A DNA stretch of 28,104 bases from an uncultured delta proteobacterium (GTDB taxonomy: Bacteria > Desulfobacterota > Syntrophia > Syntrophales > UBA2185). Location of the stretch: assembly GCA_963729715.1 (NCBI GenBank), contig CAVSPA010000013.1:1-28104 (forward strand), given 5' to 3'. The notes under the pieces are model-generated. The model had not been told where the DNA came from. It made no database searches and saw only the letters and a list, made by a program, of their open reading frames with translations. Below, one piece after another: positions 1 to 25,403 of the stretch. Every line of letters begins with the position of its first letter. The first letter of the stretch is position 1. The position numbers and the translations under genes were made by a program.

Positions 1-873
1 TCCGAGGGGCCTACCCTCATCTCCTGGTTGGGTAGAGTCGAGGCGCGGACCGGACTTCGTATGATGCCGACGTTTCCTCGTCCCCCCCGCTCATTCCGTA
101 CGGCGGGTTTTCCCCGATACGGCTGGAAGGCTCGCTTTCAAGTGGGACCTTCCCTGACTGTTTCCAGCTTAAGTTTGCTCCCGACATACGCTCGTTCCGG
201 CCTGGTTTGTCACCACCCTTAGTGTACCAATCAAGTCCGCCCTCTTTTCCTGCTCAGTGTCAGGTCGACGCCTTCTTGATACACCGCCTTGGAGGGTAAT
301 AAGCCCTCCGCCCCAGGGGTCCTCGCTCTGGTCCGGGTTATGCTGTCCCGGTCCGTCATCACTTAATCGACCCCCTCCGCCCCTCTCGCAGGCACATCGC
401 GTCTTCGCCACCTTTGTGACTTATGCTCGATGTCTTCGCTGTGCGGGGCGCCTAGGCGACCCGCGAGAGGTTCCGAGCTTTTGCTGTTCATTCCTTCCTA
501 ACATGCCATCCTCTTCAACCCCGGGGAGTTCAGTCATCGTTCTTGTCCAATATTTCGATGCCGACATGGGCCTTCGCCAAGCTGCAAACGGCTCGGCACT
601 CCCGATATTCCCGCCATCCGTTTCACGCGGGGCCACATTTCGGGGCTTCTCTGGTTCGCTCTTGCTACGGCCTGCTAGGTTGCTCGTCCCCCTGGACGGA
701 TCAAACTAGGACTCTCCCAGCCTCCGGGGACTTTTACTTCCAGGCTTTCGATGAGTTGGTCACCCTTCTCATCGCTGGATATAACTACGGCAGTCATTGG
801 ACCCCTCTGCCGGCGGGACTTTCACCCGCTGGAATAACAGCTAGCCTCGCTGCACTGCAGCCTCGTGGCGCAC
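1..873 (-). mobile_element. Outer group II intron, 5' part only; interrupted by the inner intron and running off the window edge
   Basis: Canonical GTGCG 5' end at 873 (GTGCGCCACGAGGCTGCA, 873-856). It resumes after the inner intron as CAGGAGATGAGGGTAGGCCCCTCGGA (26-1), which resembles a domain I stem-loop. Confidence 0.72.
27..855 (-). mobile_element. ORF-less group II intron (inner intron, about 829 nt)
   Basis: The minus strand starts GTGCAGCG at 855. Domain V CAGCCGTATCGGGGAAAACCCGCCGTACGGAATG lies at about 125-92 with the AGC triad. A domain VI-like stem ends CTCTACCCAAC at 27. The EBS1 hairpin GCCG-TTTGCAGCT-TGGC is at 592-576. No RT/maturase ORF in the ORF track. Confidence 0.88.
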
Positions 874-8140: not shown

Positions 8141-8367
8141 ATACAAAATAAATGGCCATCATCACAGAAAATGGATGAATGCATGAATAGGCTCAGGACT
8201 TCTTTCTTTGCATTTCAGAAGCATTCTCATTTGCTTCTTCCTGAAATCCTCAAACCGCTAACTTCGATTTTCATTGTAGAGTTCAACCGGTAATCCTCAA
8301 CACACAATGGATATTTCTCCGTGATTGATGTATAGAACCACATTCATATGTGGGAGGGTGCACATCG

Positions 8368-9891
8368 ATGAAATCCATTCTGATAAGAACCAGTTTTCTT
8401 TCCTTATGCCTGCTATTATGCATTCCTATGAAGTCTAATGCGGCCAGCGAGCAACGGACAGCCCTTGTAATCGGCAATAGCAATTACAGTTCTGGCCCTC
8501 TCAAGAACCCCGTCAATGACGCAACAGATATGGCTGCTGCGCTCCGTAAAGCAGGGTTCACGGTAGTTCTGAAGAAGGATGCAAACCTTGAGACAATGGA
8601 GCAAGCCATAGAGGATTTCGGTAACCGTCTGAAACGAGGTGGTGTGGGCCTTTTCTATTATGCTGGCCATGGAGTTCAGGTGAACGGCGTCAATTATCTT
8701 GTTCCTATAGGAGCTAAGGTTAACAAGGAATCGGACGTGCGATTCAAAGCCATTGACGTTGGGCGAATCCTCGCCGAGATGGAGAACGCCAACAACGGCC
8801 TGAATATAGTGCTACTCGACGCCTGCCGTGACAACCCCTTTGGCAAGAGTTACCGCAGTGCCTCCCGTGGCCTATCTATTGTGAGCAATGCTCCGACCGG
8901 CACGTTCATTTCATACTCCACCGGTGCTGGCCAAGTGGCCAGGGATGGTGAGGGAAGGAACAGTCCCTACACAAGGACTCTTCTTCAATATATGCGGGAA
9001 CCCGGGGTGCCAATTACGGAGCTATTCATAAAGGTTCGCCAGAAACTACGCAAGGAGACCGGGCAGGTGCCGTGGGAATTATCATCGCTGGAGGGTGAAT
9101 TTTATTTTGTACCGGGAGCAAAAAAGGCAGCGGCAGATTATGTGGGAGATGAACCTCAAAAGGAAGAAAAATCTACACAGATTCAGAAGCAAGAGAGTTC
9201 AGCCTTTGCTGATTTAAAAAGGAAGATGGAAGAGAGACGTGAAAAAGAAAGCCAATGGGTAAAGGATTTTGAGGATGCTAAACAGATGGAAGCGGATAGC
9301 CCGGATATGGCACAGAAGATTCAGGTGTGGCGGCAGTTTCTTGCAACTCTGCCTAATGAACTTACCGCCAAGGGCAATGAAATTCAGAAACGCGCGAGCA
9401 ACAGAGCAGAGATGTTGGAACACTGGAAAACAATTGGTAAGACACCACCCAAGGAAATCAGGAGCGATGGGCGGTTCATAGCCTATGATGACGGAACGGT
9501 GCTCGACACCCGGAACAAGCTCATGTGGGCAGCGAAGGATAATGAATATGATCTCAATTGGGTGAGCGCCAAGAGTTATTGTGACAATTATCGAGGGGGT
9601 GGATACAAAGACTGGCGGATGCCGACTGAAGAGGAGCTGAAGGGAATATTTGGTTCAGGAGAACCAAGACCTGGAAAATGCCAACAGGCTCAAAGTATGA
9701 CCCTGACGGAATTGATTAATCTGTCCTGTTATTGGGTATGGACATCTTCAACCAATATAGTCCCTGGTGGTCAGGCTGCCCTCTATGCTGATTTCCGGTA
9801 TTCGCCAGTGAGCAATTCTATGTATATCGGAAATTACGCACAGAAGGAAACGTTATGGCTACGAGCCCTTCCGGTGCGTTCTATCAAATAG
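8368..9891 (+). CDS. Secreted caspase-domain (peptidase C14) protein with C-terminal DUF1566/Lcl-type domain
   Basis: ALVIGNSNY..L.NPVNDA, YYAGHG and LDACR catalytic dyad. C-terminal GTVLD..LMW..A..YC..GGYKDWRMPT..EL. Confidence 0.88.
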   Translation: MKSILIRTSFLSLCLLLCIPMKSNAASEQRTALVIGNSNYSSGPLKNPVNDATDMAAALRKAGFTVVLKKDANLETMEQAIEDFGNRLKRGGVGLFYYAGHGVQVNGVNYLVPIGAKVNKESDVRFKAIDVGRILAEMENANNGLNIVLLDACRDNPFGKSYRSASRGLSIVSNAPTGTFISYSTGAGQVARDGEGRNSPYTRTLLQYMREPGVPITELFIKVRQKLRKETGQVPWELSSLEGEFYFVPGAKKAAADYVGDEPQKEEKSTQIQKQESSAFADLKRKMEERREKESQWVKDFEDAKQMEADSPDMAQKIQVWRQFLATLPNELTAKGNEIQKRASNRAEMLEHWKTIGKTPPKEIRSDGRFIAYDDGTVLDTRNKLMWAAKDNEYDLNWVSAKSYCDNYRGGGYKDWRMPTEEELKGIFGSGEPRPGKCQQAQSMTLTELINLSCYWVWTSSTNIVPGGQAALYADFRYSPVSNSMYIGNYAQKETLWLRALPVRSIK

Positions 9892-14428: not shown

Positions 14429-14742
14429 GTGCCCGTCTTGTCGAAGCAAAAGTGTACTGGTCCCCCTACTCCACATGAGTTGACCAGAGATCCGGACTGG
14501 GACGAAGATGAAAAGATGCTTACGACGTATGACCTGGGACTTGATAACAGGTCATCTGTAAAGGTGTTTATAGGTATTGATAAACCGGACTTGCATAAAT
14601 TACCTTTTCTCTGAAGCCTGAAGATCTTGCCGCCCTGCCAGCGCTTTCAAGAGATGAACAGGAGATGTTTACCCATAGAATTATGCTTGAGGATTTGAAG
14701 GTTTTACCGGCTAAATATCAGTCAAAGGAGACGACCTTATGA
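14429..14742 (+). pseudogene. Truncated, frameshifted C-terminal gene fragment upstream of the ferredoxin
   Basis: ..GIDKPDLHKLPF, frame change at the T-run near 14605-14608, then LKPEDLAALP..KETTL*. Its TGA overlaps the ferredoxin ATG (ATGA at 14739-14742). Confidence 0.45.
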
Positions 14743-15068
14743 AATTTGATATGCCAACATGCGGAGGTTGCAGGACTTGTGAATTAGCGTGTTCGTATCA
14801 TCATACCGGCGAATTTGCTCCTTCAGTATCCAGTATTAAAATTCTCGATAAAGAAGACGGCGCTGGATATTACGTGTTGTTTCTTGAAGACAATGAGGAA
14901 AAAGAGAAAGGTTGTGACGGTTGTGTTAATTTGGACGTCCCCTTGTGTGTAGAATTCTGTAAGAAACCGGAAGAACTAACAAAGATGGTGAAAGAACTCC
15001 TCGAAAAGGTGAGATCAAAGGGAAGAGAAGCGGAGATGAATATCAGGCCCGCGCAAGGTTTGCGTTAA
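14739..15068 (+). CDS. 4Fe-4S ferredoxin-like subunit associated with AOR
   Basis: CGGCRTCELAC and CDGC..PLCVEFC. AAGGAG SD. Confidence 0.85.
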   Translation: MKFDMPTCGGCRTCELACSYHHTGEFAPSVSSIKILDKEDGAGYYVLFLEDNEEKEKGCDGCVNLDVPLCVEFCKKPEELTKMVKELLEKVRSKGREAEMNIRPAQGLR

Positions 15069-15139
15069 TCGCCTTCTGCTCGTCACATAAAGTAATTCGT
15101 AAAGAAGGACGGGAGAAAAAAACATCAAAGGGATATGAG

Positions 15140-17086
15140 ATGTCAGAAAATGGAAGTCTATATACATATGCTGGTAAAATTCTCCACATCAATTTAAGCA
15201 ATGGGAAAATCTGGACGGAGCCTACATCAAAATACGCCAGGGAATGGTTAGGGGCATCCGGAATTGCCGTCAAAATCCTCTACGATGAATTGAAGTCCTG
15301 GGTGACGCCCTATGATCCGGCGAATAAGCTCATCTTCGGTTCGGGGCCCCTTGTGGGAACGACGGCGCCCGGAGCGAATAAGATGAATGTAAGTACATTG
15401 GGTCCGATGATTCATGGATGGGCCAGTTCCTGCAGCGATAGTTACGTGGGAGCTCAACTAAAATTTTCTGGGTATGATTCCATTGTTTTTGAAGGAAAGG
15501 CCCATACGCCCGTATATTTATGGGTCCATGATGATAAAGTGGAGATTCGGAATGCCAGCCATTTGTGGGGGAAGACGACTTGGGAGACCCTGGACCTAAT
15601 CCGAAAAGAGTTGGGCGATCCTTCCTTGCATATTGCGTCCATCGGGCCCGCGGGCGAGAATCTTGTTCGCGGCGCATGCATTGTCCAAGATACAGGGAGA
15701 GCGTTTGGGCGCTGTGGTACAGGGGCCGTAATGGGATCCAAGAATTTGAAGGCGATTGTGGCCAAAGGCACGGGTGCAATCAGGGTGGCCCAACCGACGC
15801 GGTTTATGGAAGCTGTAAAAAGATCCCGAGCCTTGTATAAGACTGCCCGGAGTGTAGAGAACTTTCATAAATACGGGACGCTCTCTATTTTCCAGGCGAA
15901 GCAAGACGTATGCGGTATTCCGTACAAAAATTTTCAGGAGGGGCGTATCCCGGATGATATGGCCGCAGTTATGCACCCTTCTAAGACTTGCGATAAATAT
16001 ACGATTGCTCCCGTAAGCTTCCCCGGATGTGGTGTGGGGGGATGCGGCCGGCGGCTACATATCACAGAGGGACCTTATGCCGGACTCAAGACCGAGTGCA
16101 ACCAGTGGGAGGTTATGGGAACACTGCAGGGCCGTCTCGCCGTTTGGGAACCTACCTTTATGCTCAAGATCAACGCCGTCTGCAATAAGTTGGGACTGGA
16201 CGTGGATGCAGTTGGAGGCGCCATCGGCTGGGCGATGGAGTGCTATCAACGGGACATCCTCAAAGAAACCGATACGGACGGTCTCAAATTAAATTGGGGC
16301 GACGCCGGCGTTATTCTCGAACTGACTCGAAAGATTGCCTACCGGGAAGGTTTTGGGGACATATTGGCGGAGGGATGCGCAAGGGCGGCCGACATCCTCG
16401 GCCGGGATAGCAGGTACTATGCTATGCATATTAAAGGTCAAGATCTCTACGAACCGCTTCGGGGAGCGAATGCTTGGGCCTTGGGAGTCACCACCGCTAC
16501 CCGCGGTGGAGGTCATACCTCGGGGGCTCCGGTATGCGAAACGGTTCCCAATTTGGACCTCAAGAAAGCCAAGGAGATTTTTGGGGTCGATAATGCCGAC
16601 CAATCTACCGCTTATGAAGGGAAGGCTAAAATGGTGAAAGTCATGGAGGTCGTTCACCGGGTATGTAACTCTTTCGGTGTTTGCATGTGGAATACCATTG
16701 CTTGGGATTTAGGAATGCCCGGGTTGCCAGAGTTAACCGAACTTTACTCTGCGGCTACAGGTTGGGAGACTTCGGCGGAAGACTTGGAGAGGCTGACGAT
16801 GAAGCAGCTGAATTTGGAGAAGGCGTTCAACCTGAGATTTACTGCTTTCGATCGAAAAGATGACATGCCTACCCCCAGAGATCTAAATGAGCCCATCCCC
16901 AAAGGTAAGTTAGCCGGTGTTAAAATCGATGAGGAAAAGTGGAATGAACTGCTTGATGATTACTATGATCTTCATGGATGGGACAGAAAAACCAGTTTCC
17001 CTACGAGAAGAACTTTGATTGATTTAGGGATTGGCGATGTGGCAAACGACTTAGAAATGATCGGCAAATTAGGACGAGGAGCATGA
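15140..17086 (+). CDS. aor: Tungsten/molybdenum-pterin aldehyde:ferredoxin oxidoreductase family enzyme
   Basis: YAGKILHINLS, LKFSGYD, IGPAGENLV, GRCGTGAVMGSKNLKAI, CNKLGLD, IAYREGFG..LAEG, YY.LHGWD..P. Confidence 0.93.
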   Translation: MSENGSLYTYAGKILHINLSNGKIWTEPTSKYAREWLGASGIAVKILYDELKSWVTPYDPANKLIFGSGPLVGTTAPGANKMNVSTLGPMIHGWASSCSDSYVGAQLKFSGYDSIVFEGKAHTPVYLWVHDDKVEIRNASHLWGKTTWETLDLIRKELGDPSLHIASIGPAGENLVRGACIVQDTGRAFGRCGTGAVMGSKNLKAIVAKGTGAIRVAQPTRFMEAVKRSRALYKTARSVENFHKYGTLSIFQAKQDVCGIPYKNFQEGRIPDDMAAVMHPSKTCDKYTIAPVSFPGCGVGGCGRRLHITEGPYAGLKTECNQWEVMGTLQGRLAVWEPTFMLKINAVCNKLGLDVDAVGGAIGWAMECYQRDILKETDTDGLKLNWGDAGVILELTRKIAYREGFGDILAEGCARAADILGRDSRYYAMHIKGQDLYEPLRGANAWALGVTTATRGGGHTSGAPVCETVPNLDLKKAKEIFGVDNADQSTAYEGKAKMVKVMEVVHRVCNSFGVCMWNTIAWDLGMPGLPELTELYSAATGWETSAEDLERLTMKQLNLEKAFNLRFTAFDRKDDMPTPRDLNEPIPKGKLAGVKIDEEKWNELLDDYYDLHGWDRKTSFPTRRTLIDLGIGDVANDLEMIGKLGRGA

Positions 17087-17384
17087 AAAATACTGGCCGA
17101 TAAATGAATCATAAATTGTCCTAAACGAGAGTTGGTTTGATAGTGGGAGAACCTGCATTGCAAGCGGGGTTTACGCCACTAACTTCTCCCTCACATTCTT
17201 TTCTTGTACGTCTTCAAATGGGGGCTACTTCATTTGTGCGGTTGTCTCCACAGAGAAAGAGCTTGTTGGACAATAAGGCTTTATCCTTTGCAGCTTAAGA
17301 GTTTATCACACTAAAAAGTGACCGTTGCGAAGTGGTGAAACCAGGAATCAGCGTTCATTAATGCAGTGGAAGGAGGTTTTCAAT

Positions 17385-17705
17385 ATTTCAACAATTGAAT
17401 TCGCAGGAAAACAATACGAAGTGGATGAGGACGGTTATCTCCAGGAACCTGACAAGTGGAGTGAAGAGTTTGCCCAGGCCTATGCGAAAGAGGAAGGCAT
17501 CGAGGGTGTCCTGACCGAAGAGCACTGGAAGATTATTCGCTATCTGCGGGGTTATTTTCAGCAGTTCGGTATGGCTCCTATTATTAGGAAACTCTGTAAA
17601 GATAATGGGATCAATAAGCAGAAGCTCGACGAACTCTTTCCGACAGGACCTGCCAAAGGGGCCTGCAAGCTGGCAGGGCTATCGAAACCAGCCGGATGCA
17701 TCTGA
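17385..17705 (+). CDS. DsrC/TusE family sulfur-relay protein
   Basis: VDEDGYL..W..LTEEHWKII.YLR..LFPTGPAKGACKLAGLSKPAGCI, with both C-terminal Cys (CX10C). AGGAGG at 17371-17376 points to an ATT codon at 17385. Confidence 0.85.
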   Translation: MSTIEFAGKQYEVDEDGYLQEPDKWSEEFAQAYAKEEGIEGVLTEEHWKIIRYLRGYFQQFGMAPIIRKLCKDNGINKQKLDELFPTGPAKGACKLAGLSKPAGCI

Positions 17706-18284
17706 ACGATATTATCAGCAGTGGGCGCATCGTGTTGAATAGGGCTCAAGGAGCGATAGCACATGGGTTGTGTGGATCGTAATCCGCACATTTTCCGTAA
17801 GATTATTTTTCCGGGTGCTGCTGCGTGCAGAAGCTTATATCTTGTTGCTGCGGATATGCGACAGGAATCTGAATGTCTTGTCAGCATCTGAGAAATTCTT
17901 TAGTCTAAATTTTCCTCTCGCTGTCGCTGGGGCATGTTTGATTGCACGACCTTCCCATGGGGTTGTCTGAACCGGTGATGGCGAACGGAAATCTCCTGGT
18001 CCCCGCAATCAACAGAACGACGCTGATGGGCTCATTTGCGGATGCATCGATGAAGTGGGCATCGCTTGGCCCGGAACGTTCTTCCCGCTCATCCATGATA
18101 GTCTCACACAACATGACGCGCCAAGTTCCATATGAAGCGAATCCAAACCACGCGTCCCGGCTGCAATGTCCCGGCCCACGCCTTTGAGACTTGCCTGAAA
18201 GGCCGGAATGGTTTATATGAGAGCCGATATGAAGCATAAAGCCGTTTAACTTTGTCTCCACTATTTCAAGGGAACTATATAAGA

Positions 18285-19694
18285 ATGAAAATGGGCAATT
18301 CATGTAAAGACACCGATATTTTAAATATCATCATGGAATTCGCATCAGATGGAATATTTATTGTCGATAAAAATAGTATCATCGTGGGAATGACTAAAGC
18401 TTACGAGAGAATGAGCGGGATAAAAAGGGAGGAGATCATTGGTTTGCCGGTCGCTACCTTATTGAACATGGGATTATCAAAAGTACCTGTTCTGGAAATT
18501 ATTGAAGAAAAGAAACCTCTATCGGATATAATAACATACTCCCGAACAAACAAGGAAATTCTGGTAACCGGTATTCCCATTCTTGATGAAAAAGGTGATT
18601 TAAACTACGTGGTACTTTGCTTCCGGGACCTCTCCGAATTAAATGCTCTGCAAAAAGAAATATCTAATTCGCAGAAATTGATACAACAGTATAAGAATGA
18701 ACTTGACGTATTGAAACAAGATGCTCCCCATTCTGATATTATTGCCAGAAATCCTAAAATGAAAAGGGTCCTCGAATTAGCAAGAAGATCGGCAGGCGTT
18801 GATTCAACTGTTTTAATATTGGGTGAGTCAGGGGTCGGCAAGGATTTAATCGCCAGATATATTCATCAACACTCCGACAGAAGCATAAAAGGAAAGTATA
18901 TAAAGATCGATTGCAGTTCGATACCAGAGACGTTGCTGGAGTCGGAATTATTTGGATATGAAAAAGGAGCTTTTACGGGTGCGAGAGAAACCGGCAAGCA
19001 GGGCCTTTTTCAAATGGCAGAAAAGGGCACTCTTTTTCTCGACGAAATCGGCGATTTACCTATACAGCTTCAAATGAAATTGCTCAATACCTTACAGGAC
19101 AGGAAGATAAACCCTCTCGGCAGTCTGAAATCCATTGATGTGGATGTAAGAGTTCTGGCTGCAACAAATAAAGATTTGAGAGCATTGGTAGAAAGCGGAT
19201 CATTTCGCAGTGATTTGTTTTATAGACTTAATGTTATTCAAATAGACATTCCACCCCTTAGAGAAAGAAAAGAAGAAATCATCCCCCTGGTGTTTCATTT
19301 CGCAAAAAAAATATGCTTGAAGTACGGCATAGAAAAGGACTTCTCATCGGAGGTATTGAGGCTTTTTGAAAATTATGAATGGCCGGGAAATATCAGAGAA
19401 TTGATAAACGTCGTTGAACGGTCAATCGTATTGTCTACCAATAATACTATTCAATTGCAGGACATTATGGAATTGAGTCCTATTTTCGCCAAGAAGACGC
19501 ATCCTCCATTGTCAGCAAGGAAGAACAAAGCATTAAAAGAAGCATTAGATCAGGCTGAACGCAACTTGATATTAGATACTTTGAACGAAAAGAAGTCATT
19601 AAAATTGGCCGCAGAGGAACTCAAAATAGATATTTCAACACTTGTTAGAAAAAAAAGGAAATATAAAATCAAATTCGACGGCAGTTTTGACTGA
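18285..19694 (+). CDS. sigma54-dependent enhancer-binding activator (PAS + AAA+ + Fis HTH)
   Basis: GESGVGK, ESELFGYEKGAFTGA, LFLDEIG, FRSDLFYRL, WPGNIREL and a C-terminal HTH. Start uncertain (18285 or 18291). Confidence 0.93.
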   Translation: MKMGNSCKDTDILNIIMEFASDGIFIVDKNSIIVGMTKAYERMSGIKREEIIGLPVATLLNMGLSKVPVLEIIEEKKPLSDIITYSRTNKEILVTGIPILDEKGDLNYVVLCFRDLSELNALQKEISNSQKLIQQYKNELDVLKQDAPHSDIIARNPKMKRVLELARRSAGVDSTVLILGESGVGKDLIARYIHQHSDRSIKGKYIKIDCSSIPETLLESELFGYEKGAFTGARETGKQGLFQMAEKGTLFLDEIGDLPIQLQMKLLNTLQDRKINPLGSLKSIDVDVRVLAATNKDLRALVESGSFRSDLFYRLNVIQIDIPPLRERKEEIIPLVFHFAKKICLKYGIEKDFSSEVLRLFENYEWPGNIRELINVVERSIVLSTNNTIQLQDIMELSPIFAKKTHPPLSARKNKALKEALDQAERNLILDTLNEKKSLKLAAEELKIDISTLVRKKRKYKIKFDGSFD

Positions 19695-19844
19695 GTTATG
19701 ATAGTATTGGCGGGCTAGATAGAAAATATAAGGTGGCAGGATCAATCGCAGGTCAATGCGAACTATGAAGAGATTACCCCAGATTCATAGTGATAAATGA
19801 TGTGAAGAGGATAATCTAACTAGTTCACTTGAAGGAGGCAGACG

Positions 19845-20702
19845 ATGAGTTCCACAAATGATGTTCGGTCATCATACACAAGGCGTAGTTTTCTGCGTAC
19901 TACAGTAAGTGTTGCATCAGCAGGATCAGCATTGTTATTGCTTTCTGATGACATTATTGCGGGCAATAAGCCGCCGCAATCAAAGCTGCGTACATACAAT
20001 GGCAGCACCGATCCCTATCCGATACCCTGGCTGGATAAGAACGGCAGCCATAACCAGCCGGCAGGCCCGAACTTGGAACCGTCGCACATTTTCCATTTTA
20101 AAGGGCGGGTTGCCCGCTGCGCCGGTTTCGTCGGTATGGGTACCGACAATAAAGGCAACCGGATTGCCTTCGGCACACCAACAACCGATTACGGATACAT
20201 GCAGGGAGAATACTTTGCCGGGCGCACTCCTCAGACAGGCACATTCACTCATATATGACTCACTTTGTTCCAGGGGCAGGCTGCCCCTGCAAACCAGATT
20301 CACGATTTTCATCCCCCTATTTCACCTTCCGGGTTGTACTGGGTGGTTCCGGTTCCTGAAGGGGGACTGATCATTAGTCCCGACGGGCAGACAGTAACAC
20401 TTGAGATGAAAAACATTGCGGTTGTCGATCAACCGAGGTGGCCCGCCCTTGATGCCGTCGGCATGCCGGCTGTTATGAGTTTTAAGATGATATGGGAGGC
20501 GACGGACGAAAAAATCATTTACGACGATCCGCAGAAACAATTTCGAGTGGAAGGCTATCGCGCTACATCACAGCTTGAGGCGCAAGTTAAAGTTCCATCA
20601 ATAGGCTTCTCATGGAAATCCGACCCCCTATCAGAATCGCATGCCAATTTTGCGATCATCGGGAATGAAGTGAATGGACGTTACTACAGTCCGATGAAGT
20701 AA
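19845..20702 (+). CDS. Tat-exported hypothetical protein with in-frame TGA at codon 138; candidate selenoprotein of 285 aa
   Basis: Twin-arginine motif TRRSFLR and AGGAGG SD. ORFs 19845-20258 and 20265-20702 share one frame with a single TGA between them. The second ORF has no SD. A SECIS-like hairpin follows the TGA. Confidence 0.7.
20264..20293 (+). promoter_or_regulatory. Putative bacterial SECIS element
   Basis: TTTG-(TTC bulge)-CAGGGGC-AGGCT-GCCCCTG-CAAA. The upper stem starts after a 12-nt spacer from the TGA and has a G-containing apical loop. Confidence 0.6.
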
Positions 20703-22402: not shown

Positions 22403-22966
22403 ATGAAGAACATGGTTTTTGCGTTTCTTGTTTTGTTAGTTGCGGTTGTTTGTTTTTGGGAAGATTCGATTATTCGCGCTGAAACACCAAGCAGTAAGTT
22501 ACAAGAACAAGGGACACTCAAAGATCAGCGAGACGGGAAAGTTTATAAAACAGTACAAATTGGCAAACAGACATGGATGGCAACAAATCTTGCCTATAAA
22601 GCAAACAGTGGCTATTGTGCATACAACAACGACCAGAGATATGTGGCAACATACGGCTACCTTTACGATTGGAAAACGGCAAAAGTTGTATGCCCCGCAG
22701 GCTGGCATTTACCAACCGACGCTGAATGGACAGCGATGACAGACGAATTGAAAAACCCCAATACCAGGCGTTTCCCAGGCATTCCGGCTGGCATTCGTTT
22801 TCCAGATGGCACATTCGACTTAATTGACACCAACGGTTACTATTGGAGTTCTACCGAGCACAATACAGACTTCGCGTGGTATCGGGTCATGTTAAGAGGC
22901 CATATAGTAAGAGAGAGTATCGATAAGAAAGCCGCTTTTTCTGTGCGTTGTGCTGAGGATGAATAG
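22403..22966 (+). CDS. Secreted FISUMP (Fibrobacter succinogenes major paralogous) domain protein
   Basis: D.RDGKVYKTVQIG.QTWMA.NL, YGYLYDW, CPAGWHLPT..EW, YWSSTE, FSVRC. Confidence 0.88.
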   Translation: MKNMVFAFLVLLVAVVCFWEDSIIRAETPSSKLQEQGTLKDQRDGKVYKTVQIGKQTWMATNLAYKANSGYCAYNNDQRYVATYGYLYDWKTAKVVCPAGWHLPTDAEWTAMTDELKNPNTRRFPGIPAGIRFPDGTFDLIDTNGYYWSSTEHNTDFAWYRVMLRGHIVRESIDKKAAFSVRCAEDE

Positions 22967-24563: not shown

Positions 24564-25403
24564 ATGACGACACAAGAAGCGATAACCCTGTTCAAATATT
24601 ATCTTCAAGCAAACCACAAAGAGAGAACCATTGACAGCTACAGCCTTCTGCTTGACAGGTTCAATGCGATTCATGGAGAGAGACTACTGGAGGATATCAG
24701 TCCCGATGAGATCTTCCATTTTCTGGAAAGTGTGACGCAGAAGCTGTCTAAATCCACACGGAGGCTCCGGTATGCCCAGATAAAATCCTTTTATAACTTC
24801 ATCATCGACCGCTGCTCACTGAATATGAGGAATCCCTGCAACACGACGCTGCTCAGCAAGGCCTTCAGGGCACCGAAACAGTTGCCACGCAAGATCCTCG
24901 ACAGGGAAACGGTGGAAGAAATGATCTACAACGCGAAAAGGCAGCGTGACCGGTTGCTACTGGAACTTCAGGCGCGATGTGGATTGAGAATCGGTGAATT
25001 GCTGAAGATCAAGGTGTCGGATGTCTCTGACAGAACCATCACCCTTAGAGAACCCAAATCAGGCAAGGAGGTAGAAATGGCCTACATGCCGGAGAACGTT
25101 TCGAGGAAGCTGGCGGAATACGTCAAGGAGAAGGCCCTTCAAGGAGAGGATCGGATATTCGCCATCTGCTATTCGACAGCAAGATCCCTTGTCAGAGGGC
25201 TGGGAGCCAAGTTGAATGTCCATGTGTCACCCCATGATCTCCGGAGATACTCAGCCACTTATGCCAGCAGAAACGGTGTTCCCCTGGAAGTAGTATCGAA
25301 GGTAATCTTGAGGCACCAGGATTTAAAGACAACGCAGGTCTACCTCGGAAAGATCACCGATTCCGAAGCGATCCGATGGATGGACATCCTTCACGAAAAA
25401 TAG
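24564..25403 (+). CDS. Tyrosine recombinase / integrase (XerC/D-like)
   Basis: SAM-like N-terminal domain, CGLRIGEL, PHDLRR, LRHQDLKTTQVY. No obvious IntI-specific insertion. Confidence 0.92.
   Translation: MTTQEAITLFKYYLQANHKERTIDSYSLLLDRFNAIHGERLLEDISPDEIFHFLESVTQKLSKSTRRLRYAQIKSFYNFIIDRCSLNMRNPCNTTLLSKAFRAPKQLPRKILDRETVEEMIYNAKRQRDRLLLELQARCGLRIGELLKIKVSDVSDRTITLREPKSGKEVEMAYMPENVSRKLAEYVKEKALQGEDRIFAICYSTARSLVRGLGAKLNVHVSPHDLRRYSATYASRNGVPLEVVSKVILRHQDLKTTQVYLGKITDSEAIRWMDILHEK

Follow-up and report, generated by a model that had tools for sequence, protein, structure and literature searches.

The question raised by this locus is whether a TGA codon in the middle of an open frame marks the end of a gene or is read as selenocysteine (Sec). 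The locus lies at positions 19845-20702, on the forward strand, of the DNA stretch analysed here (the window, 28,104 nucleotides from an uncultured delta proteobacterium). A preliminary description, made from the letters alone, had noted two open reading frames (ORFs) in one frame, separated by a lone TGA. This is what the window contains: between the ATG and the final TAA there is a single internal stop, in the context GTFTHI-*-LTLFQG. The comparisons below make it very probable that the locus is a single gene, a member of a bacterial selenoprotein family not described before, whose product would be exported and in which the UGA of codon 138 would be read as Sec.

The relatives of the window protein fall into two clades. 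The near clade consists of the best 80 of the 215 relative-encoding stretches that scans found in a collection of species-representative genomes (60-93% identity; 62-94% for full-length homology). The far clade consists of the best 80 of at least 341 such stretches in metagenome contigs, with about 30% identity to the window protein. TGA occupies the site in 80/80 genome loci of the near clade and in 80/80 metagenome loci of the far clade; one of the two scan patterns of the far-clade search was restricted to Trp or Cys codons at this position, which biases that search against TGA. The host phylum was sampled with 400 other genomes, which include one real carrier of the gene (57% identity, one TGA). 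A second sample of 400 other genomes, from the phylum of the carrier genome G402, includes five carriers, with identities down to 29% and one TGA each. The site codon itself was confirmed as TGA in 5 of these 6 carriers. In the 166 DNA-level loci (80 + 80 + 6), neither TGG, TGY, TAA nor TAG occurs at the site. The preliminary description had asked whether homologues keep the TGA, and they do.

Protein databases give a different picture of the same genes. A search with the read-through sequence returned few full-length matches and many half-length ones, and an exhaustive HMMER search returned 486 matches. Among the 150 of these that were listed, 23 end at query residue 136/137 and many others start at residue 139 or later, which is the pattern expected of gene callers that stop at the TGA. 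Standard annotation had been predicted to split the gene, and it does so at this very place.

The second line of evidence is a hairpin. The preliminary description had pointed to a GC-rich stem-loop, CAGGGGC-AGGCT-GCCCCTG, separated from the TGA by 12 nt. The hairpin is present and begins 12 nt past the TGA; its stem has 8 bp when the A-U closing pair is counted, and the distance from the UGA to the loop is 20 nt. The hairpin of the window is unremarkable when it is folded alone (-16.2 kcal/mol, z = -2.09, with 7/200 shuffles folding equally well). Its significance comes from comparison, that is from the TGA kept in 160 loci and from the covariation of the upper stem, and not from a single fold.

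The covariation, which had been proposed as a check, is found in both clades. In the near clade (77 distinct sequences), 94.2% of the cells of the upper helix are paired. Pair 23-39 is G-C in 42 sequences and A-U in 31, pair 27-35 is A-U in 42, G-C in 19 and G-U in 10, and pair 29-33 is A-U in 42 and C-G in 31. When both clades are taken together (131 distinct sequences), 89.6% of cells are paired, compared to 73.8% in shuffled alignments and at most 54.8% when the partners are slid, and two-sided changes are seen in 7/8 stem pairs. The covariation score is 0.503, compared to 0.214 for shuffled alignments, of which 0/500 reach 0.503, and to at most 0.162 for slid partners. On its own, RNAalifold also finds the 5 core pairs, with compensatory changes in 5/5. 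Some of these compensations combine a synonymous change on one arm (GGG or GGA, both Gly) with a replacement on the other (GCC Ala or GTC Val). The pairing of a synonymous change with an amino-acid replacement argues that the RNA, and not the protein, is what selection acts on.

The first base of the loop is G in 132/137 sequences; in the model of bacterial selenocysteine insertion sequences (SECIS; bSECIS for the bacterial model), the apical loop likewise begins with a conserved G. Scans at the gathering threshold and by E-value found no SECIS-type Rfam family at the hairpin. The stem-loop had also been described as extended by TTTG and CAAA, with a pyrimidine bulge. This extension exists in the window, but it is paired in just 39.3% of cells in the 77 distinct relatives and does not belong to what is conserved in the element.

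The host has the machinery that Sec insertion requires. The preliminary description had suggested looking for selA, selB, selC and selD, and all four are found in the genome of the window, over cut-off. The host selD carries an in-frame TGA; it is thus itself a selenoprotein gene and, for Sec decoding in this genome, an internal positive control. Of the other carrier genomes, 14/15 have SelB over cut-off (15/16 when the host is included), compared to 2/14 control genomes. Furthermore, selD adjoins the homologue in 8/80 far-clade loci (L165, L166, L169, L171, L172, L173, L176 and L181). This neighbouring selD is of the Cys type and lies upstream of the homologue (TIGR00476, 374 bits in L172), in divergent or co-directional orientation depending on the locus.

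The N-terminus of the protein carries a candidate signal for export by the Tat (twin-arginine translocation) route, whose consensus is S/T-R-R-x-F-L-K. The sequence YTRRSFL fits this consensus, as had been proposed: T-R-R-S-F-L-R is followed by the hydrophobic segment TTVSVASAGSALLLL. The arginine pair is retained in 78/81 near-clade and 74/80 far-clade sequences, and the host has a tatC gene.

The ATG at 19845 is preceded by the Shine-Dalgarno sequence AAGGAGG. A GGAGG-like motif stands at the same distance from the ATG in most of 32 homologue upstream regions as in the window. The downstream half had been described as having no Shine-Dalgarno sequence and a TTG start only, which is the case: the earliest start codon past the TGA is the TTG at 20265, three codons on, with no GGAGG-like sequence before it. 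In all loci whose frame is not ended by a contig edge, the open frame after the TGA is 140-170 codons long, with one exception of 100 codons. A metatranscriptome contig of 208 nt (n = 1) covers the 5' end of the gene (19816-20023) and is too short for a transcript claim. A genome-wide reassignment of TGA was also considered; it is ruled out by the fact that TGA terminates 4/14 other Pfam-supported ORFs of the window.

The joined protein, both halves and 40 relatives match no Pfam-A or NCBIfam family at E<=1, except for weak matches to TAT_signal, and the profile search of the PDB by sequence gave no meaningful match, the best real-looking one being to the signal peptide of NapA (E 0.58). The preliminary description had recognised no family, and none emerges from these searches. 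The positions conserved in both clades (81 + 80 sequences), among them the putative Sec, are R13-R14, P57, P59, H69, D115, M119, U138, Q151, H153, D154, P157, W166, D195, W217, S259, N277 and G278. U138 is conserved in 161/161. Cys92 is present in 74/81 near-clade sequences compared to 1/80 in the far clade, whose proteins are otherwise essentially devoid of Cys. There is thus no CxxU or UxxC motif and no resolving Cys that is common to the whole superfamily; the absence of a CxxU motif had been noted from the window alone.

The structure predicted by AlphaFold2 from a 40-sequence alignment has a mean predicted local distance difference test (pLDDT) score of 85, with values below 50 for residues 1-45 and of at least 88 for the blocks from residue 61. 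Every element is a strand, and strands 128-136 and 139-142 flank U138. The two halves form one interlocked barrel, with a pLDDT above 90 across the junction. In this model, a single compact barrel is continuous across the TGA, which indicates that one domain spans it. The model of a far-clade protein shows the same architecture (pLDDT 83.5). Foldseek found no match in the PDB at E<=0.001. A wide search with VIA-align returned generic closed barrels for the near-clade model (Z 8.2-9.3, rmsd (root-mean-square deviation) 3.8-5.9, 127-141 residues) and for the far-clade model (Z 8.2-8.8), at 3-10% sequence identity and with scores in the range that the tool calls typical of unrelated best hits. 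Among these matches are 9nh2_A (Z 9.3, rmsd 4.2, 139 residues), NspA (8.7), CghA (8.4-8.8) and OmpW (8.2-8.4). The modelled fold is a closed antiparallel β-barrel without identifiable relative.

Several observations weigh against the reading of this locus as the gene of an exported selenoprotein. The Pfam TAT_signal model scores 12.2 bits on the window protein, below its cut-off of 22.7; it matches 6/40 family members at E<=0.1, the best at 5.9e-4. One carrier, the metagenome-assembled genome (MAG) G406, whose completeness is not stated, has no selB match at E<=1e-60. Cys homologues are usual in selenoprotein families but hardly occur here: of the stop-free homologues of full length in which non-Sec forms were sought (the top 150 of the 486 HMMER matches), a lone Cys form was seen (P0250, on a 1.8-kb JGI contig). 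The Cys orthologues that the preliminary description had asked about are therefore represented by this one protein and are otherwise almost lacking. Ser, Gly and Glu are also found at the site, in P0122 (NCBI, 266-kb contig), P0009 (NCBI, 675-kb contig) and P0123 (ENA, 19-kb contig), respectively, and these residues are odd replacements for a catalytic residue. Their occurrence implies that some lineages have lost the residue altogether. The three proteins are 43-50% identical, keep most of the residues that are conserved elsewhere and may be derivatives that do without Sec or are inactive. Lastly, 10 database proteins in alignments A1 and A3 have Trp at the site.

These Trp-bearing proteins, which are full-length, bring up the first alternative, in which the UGA would be read through without selenium by a near-cognate tRNA such as tRNA-Trp, the hairpin acting as a stimulator. 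The near absence of Cys forms would fit this explanation. So would the context of the codon, since UGA followed by C is leaky and the base following the UGA is C in 129/137 sequences. The Trp-bearing database proteins include P0002-P0008, P0010, P0011, P0125, P0186, P0198 and P0202. The five whose source was checked are JGI calls on contigs of 1.0-1.3 kb and one Logan contig, and metagenomic gene callers may have chosen translation table 4 there. A comparison of the Trp-bearing proteins with the fetched loci gave no identical locus. They are probably table-4 miscalls of TGA, because the codon is TGA in 80/80 near-clade genome loci and TGG in none. Moreover, TGG is one transition away from TGA and would be expected if Trp were acceptable, yet it is missing from all 166 DNA-level homologues. 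The occurrence of selB in nearly all carrier genomes and the selD neighbour in eight far-clade loci also speak against a read-through that does without selenium, and the position of the hairpin, the length of its stem and its G-first loop fit a SelB-binding element. Selenium-free read-through is consequently very unlikely.

In the second alternative, the UGA is a true stop and the locus holds two genes, one for a 137-residue protein with a Tat signal and the other for a protein of about 145 residues, whose translation would be re-initiated at the TTG that follows. Standard gene callers do give the halves separately, and a TTG stands at the same third codon past the TGA in 23/137 sequences. On the other hand, in 96/137 sequences the 12 codons that follow the TGA contain no ATG, GTG or TTG, and there is no Shine-Dalgarno sequence. 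The preliminary description had asked whether the halves occur as independent genes. In the 166 loci they are never apart or reordered at the DNA level, they are always adjacent and in one frame, and they are separate only as gene-caller products. The stop is invariably TGA, never TAA or TAG. The interlocked barrel that AlphaFold2 predicts with confidence over the junction also argues for one protein, and a C-terminal half that was made separately would carry no export signal. Two genes are hardly credible at this locus.

The idea of a pseudogene (a nonsense lesion within accessory DNA that is decaying) or of a sequencing or assembly error has a negligible probability: the preliminary description had pointed out other apparent lesions in the window, and the region is accessory, with an integrase, a group II intron and no synteny to the same-genus genome G394, but the TGA is identical across phyla and in clades that share about 30% identity, both the frame and the protein sequence past it are conserved, the identities of 27-94% among relatives exclude a single dead allele that has spread recently, and four independent DNA contigs from two studies span the TGA with zero differences listed there.

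The 285-residue exported selenoprotein with Sec at position 138 that had been proposed for this locus has thus gone through each of the tests that were named as able to refute it, and none refutes it; export is predicted from the sequence. The recoding of UGA138 to Sec by SelB and Sec-tRNA(Sec), via the hairpin, is supported by these sequence comparisons. When the ribosome reaches UGA138, the 8-bp hairpin with its G-first triloop, 12 nt downstream, would serve as a bacterial SECIS. It would recruit SelB-GTP carrying Sec-tRNA(Sec), Sec would be inserted, and translation would run on to the TAA, which would give a precursor of 285 residues. The Tat translocon would then export the folded precursor to the periplasm by means of the T-R-R-S-F-L signal. 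The mature protein would be a closed all-β barrel in which Sec138 sits at the junction of two strands.

Judging from the conserved residues, a periplasmic redox site or a soft-metal or cofactor site would be the likeliest role of the protein, with Sec138 and conserved His, Met and Asp (or Gln, Trp and Asn) residues making up the site. The selenolate would serve as a ligand or a nucleophile for which sulfur is no substitute, and this would account for the near absence of Cys forms. A more specific proposal can be made tentatively and is rather doubtful: the protein would be an obligate-Sec, Tat-exported β-barrel, otherwise nearly devoid of Cys, and would represent a new class of periplasmic seleno-metalloprotein or enzyme, in which U138 either binds a metal or a cofactor together with H69, M119, H153, D154 and D195, or acts as a lone nucleophile. 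A chemistry that is incompatible with sulfur would explain the lack of TGY in 166 loci, in clades about 30% identical and in several phyla.

Table. Positions of the candidate selenoprotein gene, its parts and other features of the window, and matches to Sec and Tat genes in the host genome (C5, C12 and C14 are contigs of the host)
Feature	Position	Strand	Remarks
Candidate selenoprotein gene	19845-20702	+	285 codons + TAA (20700-20702); putative Sec = codon 138
Shine-Dalgarno sequence AAGGAGG	19832-19838	+	6 nt ahead of ATG 19845; read directly
Predicted Tat signal peptide and linker	19845-19979	+	residues 1-45; R13-R14 at 19881-19886
Predicted mature β-barrel domain	19980-20699	+	residues ~46-285; AlphaFold2
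UGA codon, putatively read as Sec (U138)	20256-20258	+	TGA at homologous codon in relatives
SECIS-like hairpin	20271-20289	+	5' arm 20271-20278, triloop GGC 20279-20281, 3' arm 20282-20289
Lower stem TTTG/CAAA	20264-20267 / 20290-20293	+	window-specific; flanks hairpin
Group II intron domain	660-831	-	Rfam RF02003, 81.7 bits, E 1.1e-16
Caspase-domain (Peptidase_C14) protein	8350-9891	+	Lcl_C C-terminal domain
4Fe-4S dicluster-like ORF, aldehyde:ferredoxin oxidoreductase and DsrC-like protein	14739-17705	+	upstream cluster
PAS/sigma-54 activator/helix-turn-helix gene	18252-19694	+	directly upstream of candidate selenoprotein gene
Fib_succ_major/Lcl_C secreted protein	22403-22966	+	
Tyrosine integrase	24564-25403	+	downstream of candidate selenoprotein gene
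selA	host C5:251434-252807		606.7 bits
selB	host C14		387.7 bits
tRNA-Sec (selC)	host C5		76.2 bits
selD	host C12:74564-75493 (L090)		390.3 bits; one in-frame TGA
tatC	host C5:675230-675883		230.7 bits; over cut-off

The genes that surround the candidate selenoprotein gene are given in the table. In the upstream cluster, the AFOR_N and AFOR_C domains are matched with E-values of 1e-74 to 1e-89, and the cluster is itself preceded by genes for a sodium:solute symporter and for a protein of the metallo-β-lactamase fold. The group II intron match sits among short overlapping ORFs (257-890). The Lcl_C domain is common to otherwise unrelated ORFs of the window. Between the gene for the sigma-54 activator and the candidate selenoprotein gene, the intergenic sequence TGGCAGGATCAATCGCA (19734-19750) resembles a -24/-12 motif whose spacing from GG to GC is one base too long. 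Conserved sigma-54 control was considered and dropped, in view of this off-consensus spacing in the window and of the lack of the motif upstream of 32 homologues.

The surroundings of the gene are not kept among relatives: neighbour clusters are common to at most 10/81 near-clade loci and at most 8/80 far-clade loci, the latter being the loci with selD. G394, a complete genome of the same genus, is without the selenoprotein gene and shares only short fragments of the window between 12000 and 28104. The region looks like accessory, possibly acquired DNA.

The record titles of the near clade are mostly from Acidobacteriota/Terriglobia, and others name Nitrospirota, Syntrophaceae, Syntrophorhabdales, Desulfomonilaceae, Verrucomicrobia, Betaproteobacteria, Myxococcaceae, Dormiibacterota and Dissulfurispiraceae. 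The family is widespread among soil bacteria; over the scans of genomes and metagenome contigs, the titles are mainly of Acidobacteriota, along with Nitrospirota, Desulfobacterota and others. The patchy distribution across phyla, together with high identity, suggests horizontal spread. Two loci, L046 and L061, belong to one MAG (contig prefix CAVWSS01) and do not differ in sequence around the TGA. Two copies of the gene may be present in some genomes.

Since this gene comes out of gene callers either as two "hypothetical proteins" or with its UGA mistranslated, annotation, selenoproteome counts and predictors based on Cys/Sec pairs all miss the family. A Sec that is kept without Cys alternatives, in a protein that has no redox motif and whose predicted fold is without characterised relatives, suggests that selenium is used outside the cytoplasm in a way not yet recognised. 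If Sec is indeed obligate, the family would act as a widespread sink for selenium and be a selenium-dependent trait of bacteria in soil, peat and sediment. The hairpin would also provide a compact, well-supported SECIS variant that comes with natural covariation data.

How the family relates to known selenoproteins can be judged from several sources. Table 1 of a 2026 review (PMC13188914) lists 119 selenoprotein families, each with a domain identifier, and the window protein matches none of those in this table that are defined by a Pfam, TIGRFAM or NCBIfam model; the families that have a cd or PTHR identifier only are outside the comparison. The same source includes the hypothetical proteins DG, DW, DF, GOS_B and GOS_C (NF049953, NF041197, NF049942, NF041374 and NF045500, respectively). 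Like the window protein, they were predicted from a conserved in-frame TGA and a SECIS-like hairpin and have no assigned function. They differ from it in having NCBIfam models, none of which the window protein matches at E<=1.

The families predicted by deep-Sep all have Cys homologues, according to the text of PMC12013277, unlike the present family, which is nearly without them. In that text, its authors state that the method may miss selenoproteins that lack Cys homologues. The passages compared here from the texts on deep-Sep (PMC12013277) and BSepDB describe no such family, their supplementary family lists being outside this comparison. Searches of the literature on new or metagenomic selenoproteins, on twin-arginine or periplasmic selenoproteins, and on in-frame-TGA selenoproteins of Acidobacteriota found none either.

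Regarding the fold, the fungal Diels-Alderases CghA and Fsa2, the 8-stranded outer-membrane barrels NspA and OmpW, the AttH-like proteins and the YceI and haemophore barrels share the overall barrel architecture of the model, at background-level scores and with an empty Foldseek search at the threshold given above. For the 8-stranded outer-membrane barrels (OmpA/OmpW/NspA-like), there is no sequence-family match. A Tat signal would also be incompatible with an outer-membrane protein inserted by the β-barrel assembly machinery (BAM).

The SECIS of E. coli fdhF, and bacterial SECIS in general, are stem-loops that start 11-12 nt past the UGA and whose apical loop begins with G. The hairpin of the window resembles them in its 12-nt spacing and its G-first loop. 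It is unlike the fdhF element in that what is conserved is an 8-bp stem, perfectly paired, closed by a loop of 3 nt (GGC, GGT or GTT), and in that there is no conserved bulged U, no conserved lower stem and no Rfam match.

The nearest functional analogue is FdnG of E. coli, the catalytic subunit of a periplasmic formate dehydrogenase, which is made as a precursor with a Tat signal and contains one UGA-encoded Sec, inserted with the help of SelB and of a hairpin in the coding region just past the UGA. The catalytic subunits are periplasmic, according to the abstract of PMC3160892. FdnG/FdoG (TIGR01553) and the window protein are alike in the Tat signal, the single UGA-Sec and the in-gene hairpin after the UGA, with export and Sec being predicted in the present case. 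They are not homologous: the window protein has no NCBIfam or Pfam match and no sequence similarity to FdnG/FdoG, and it has 285 residues instead of about 1000. Unlike FdnG/FdoG, it is devoid of molybdopterin or Fe-S binding motifs, its predicted fold is an all-β barrel and its gene has no conserved partner genes. The recoding mechanism is the canonical bacterial one and the protein family is new; with its predicted export it would be a second kind of selenoprotein, next to formate dehydrogenase, that Tat exports.

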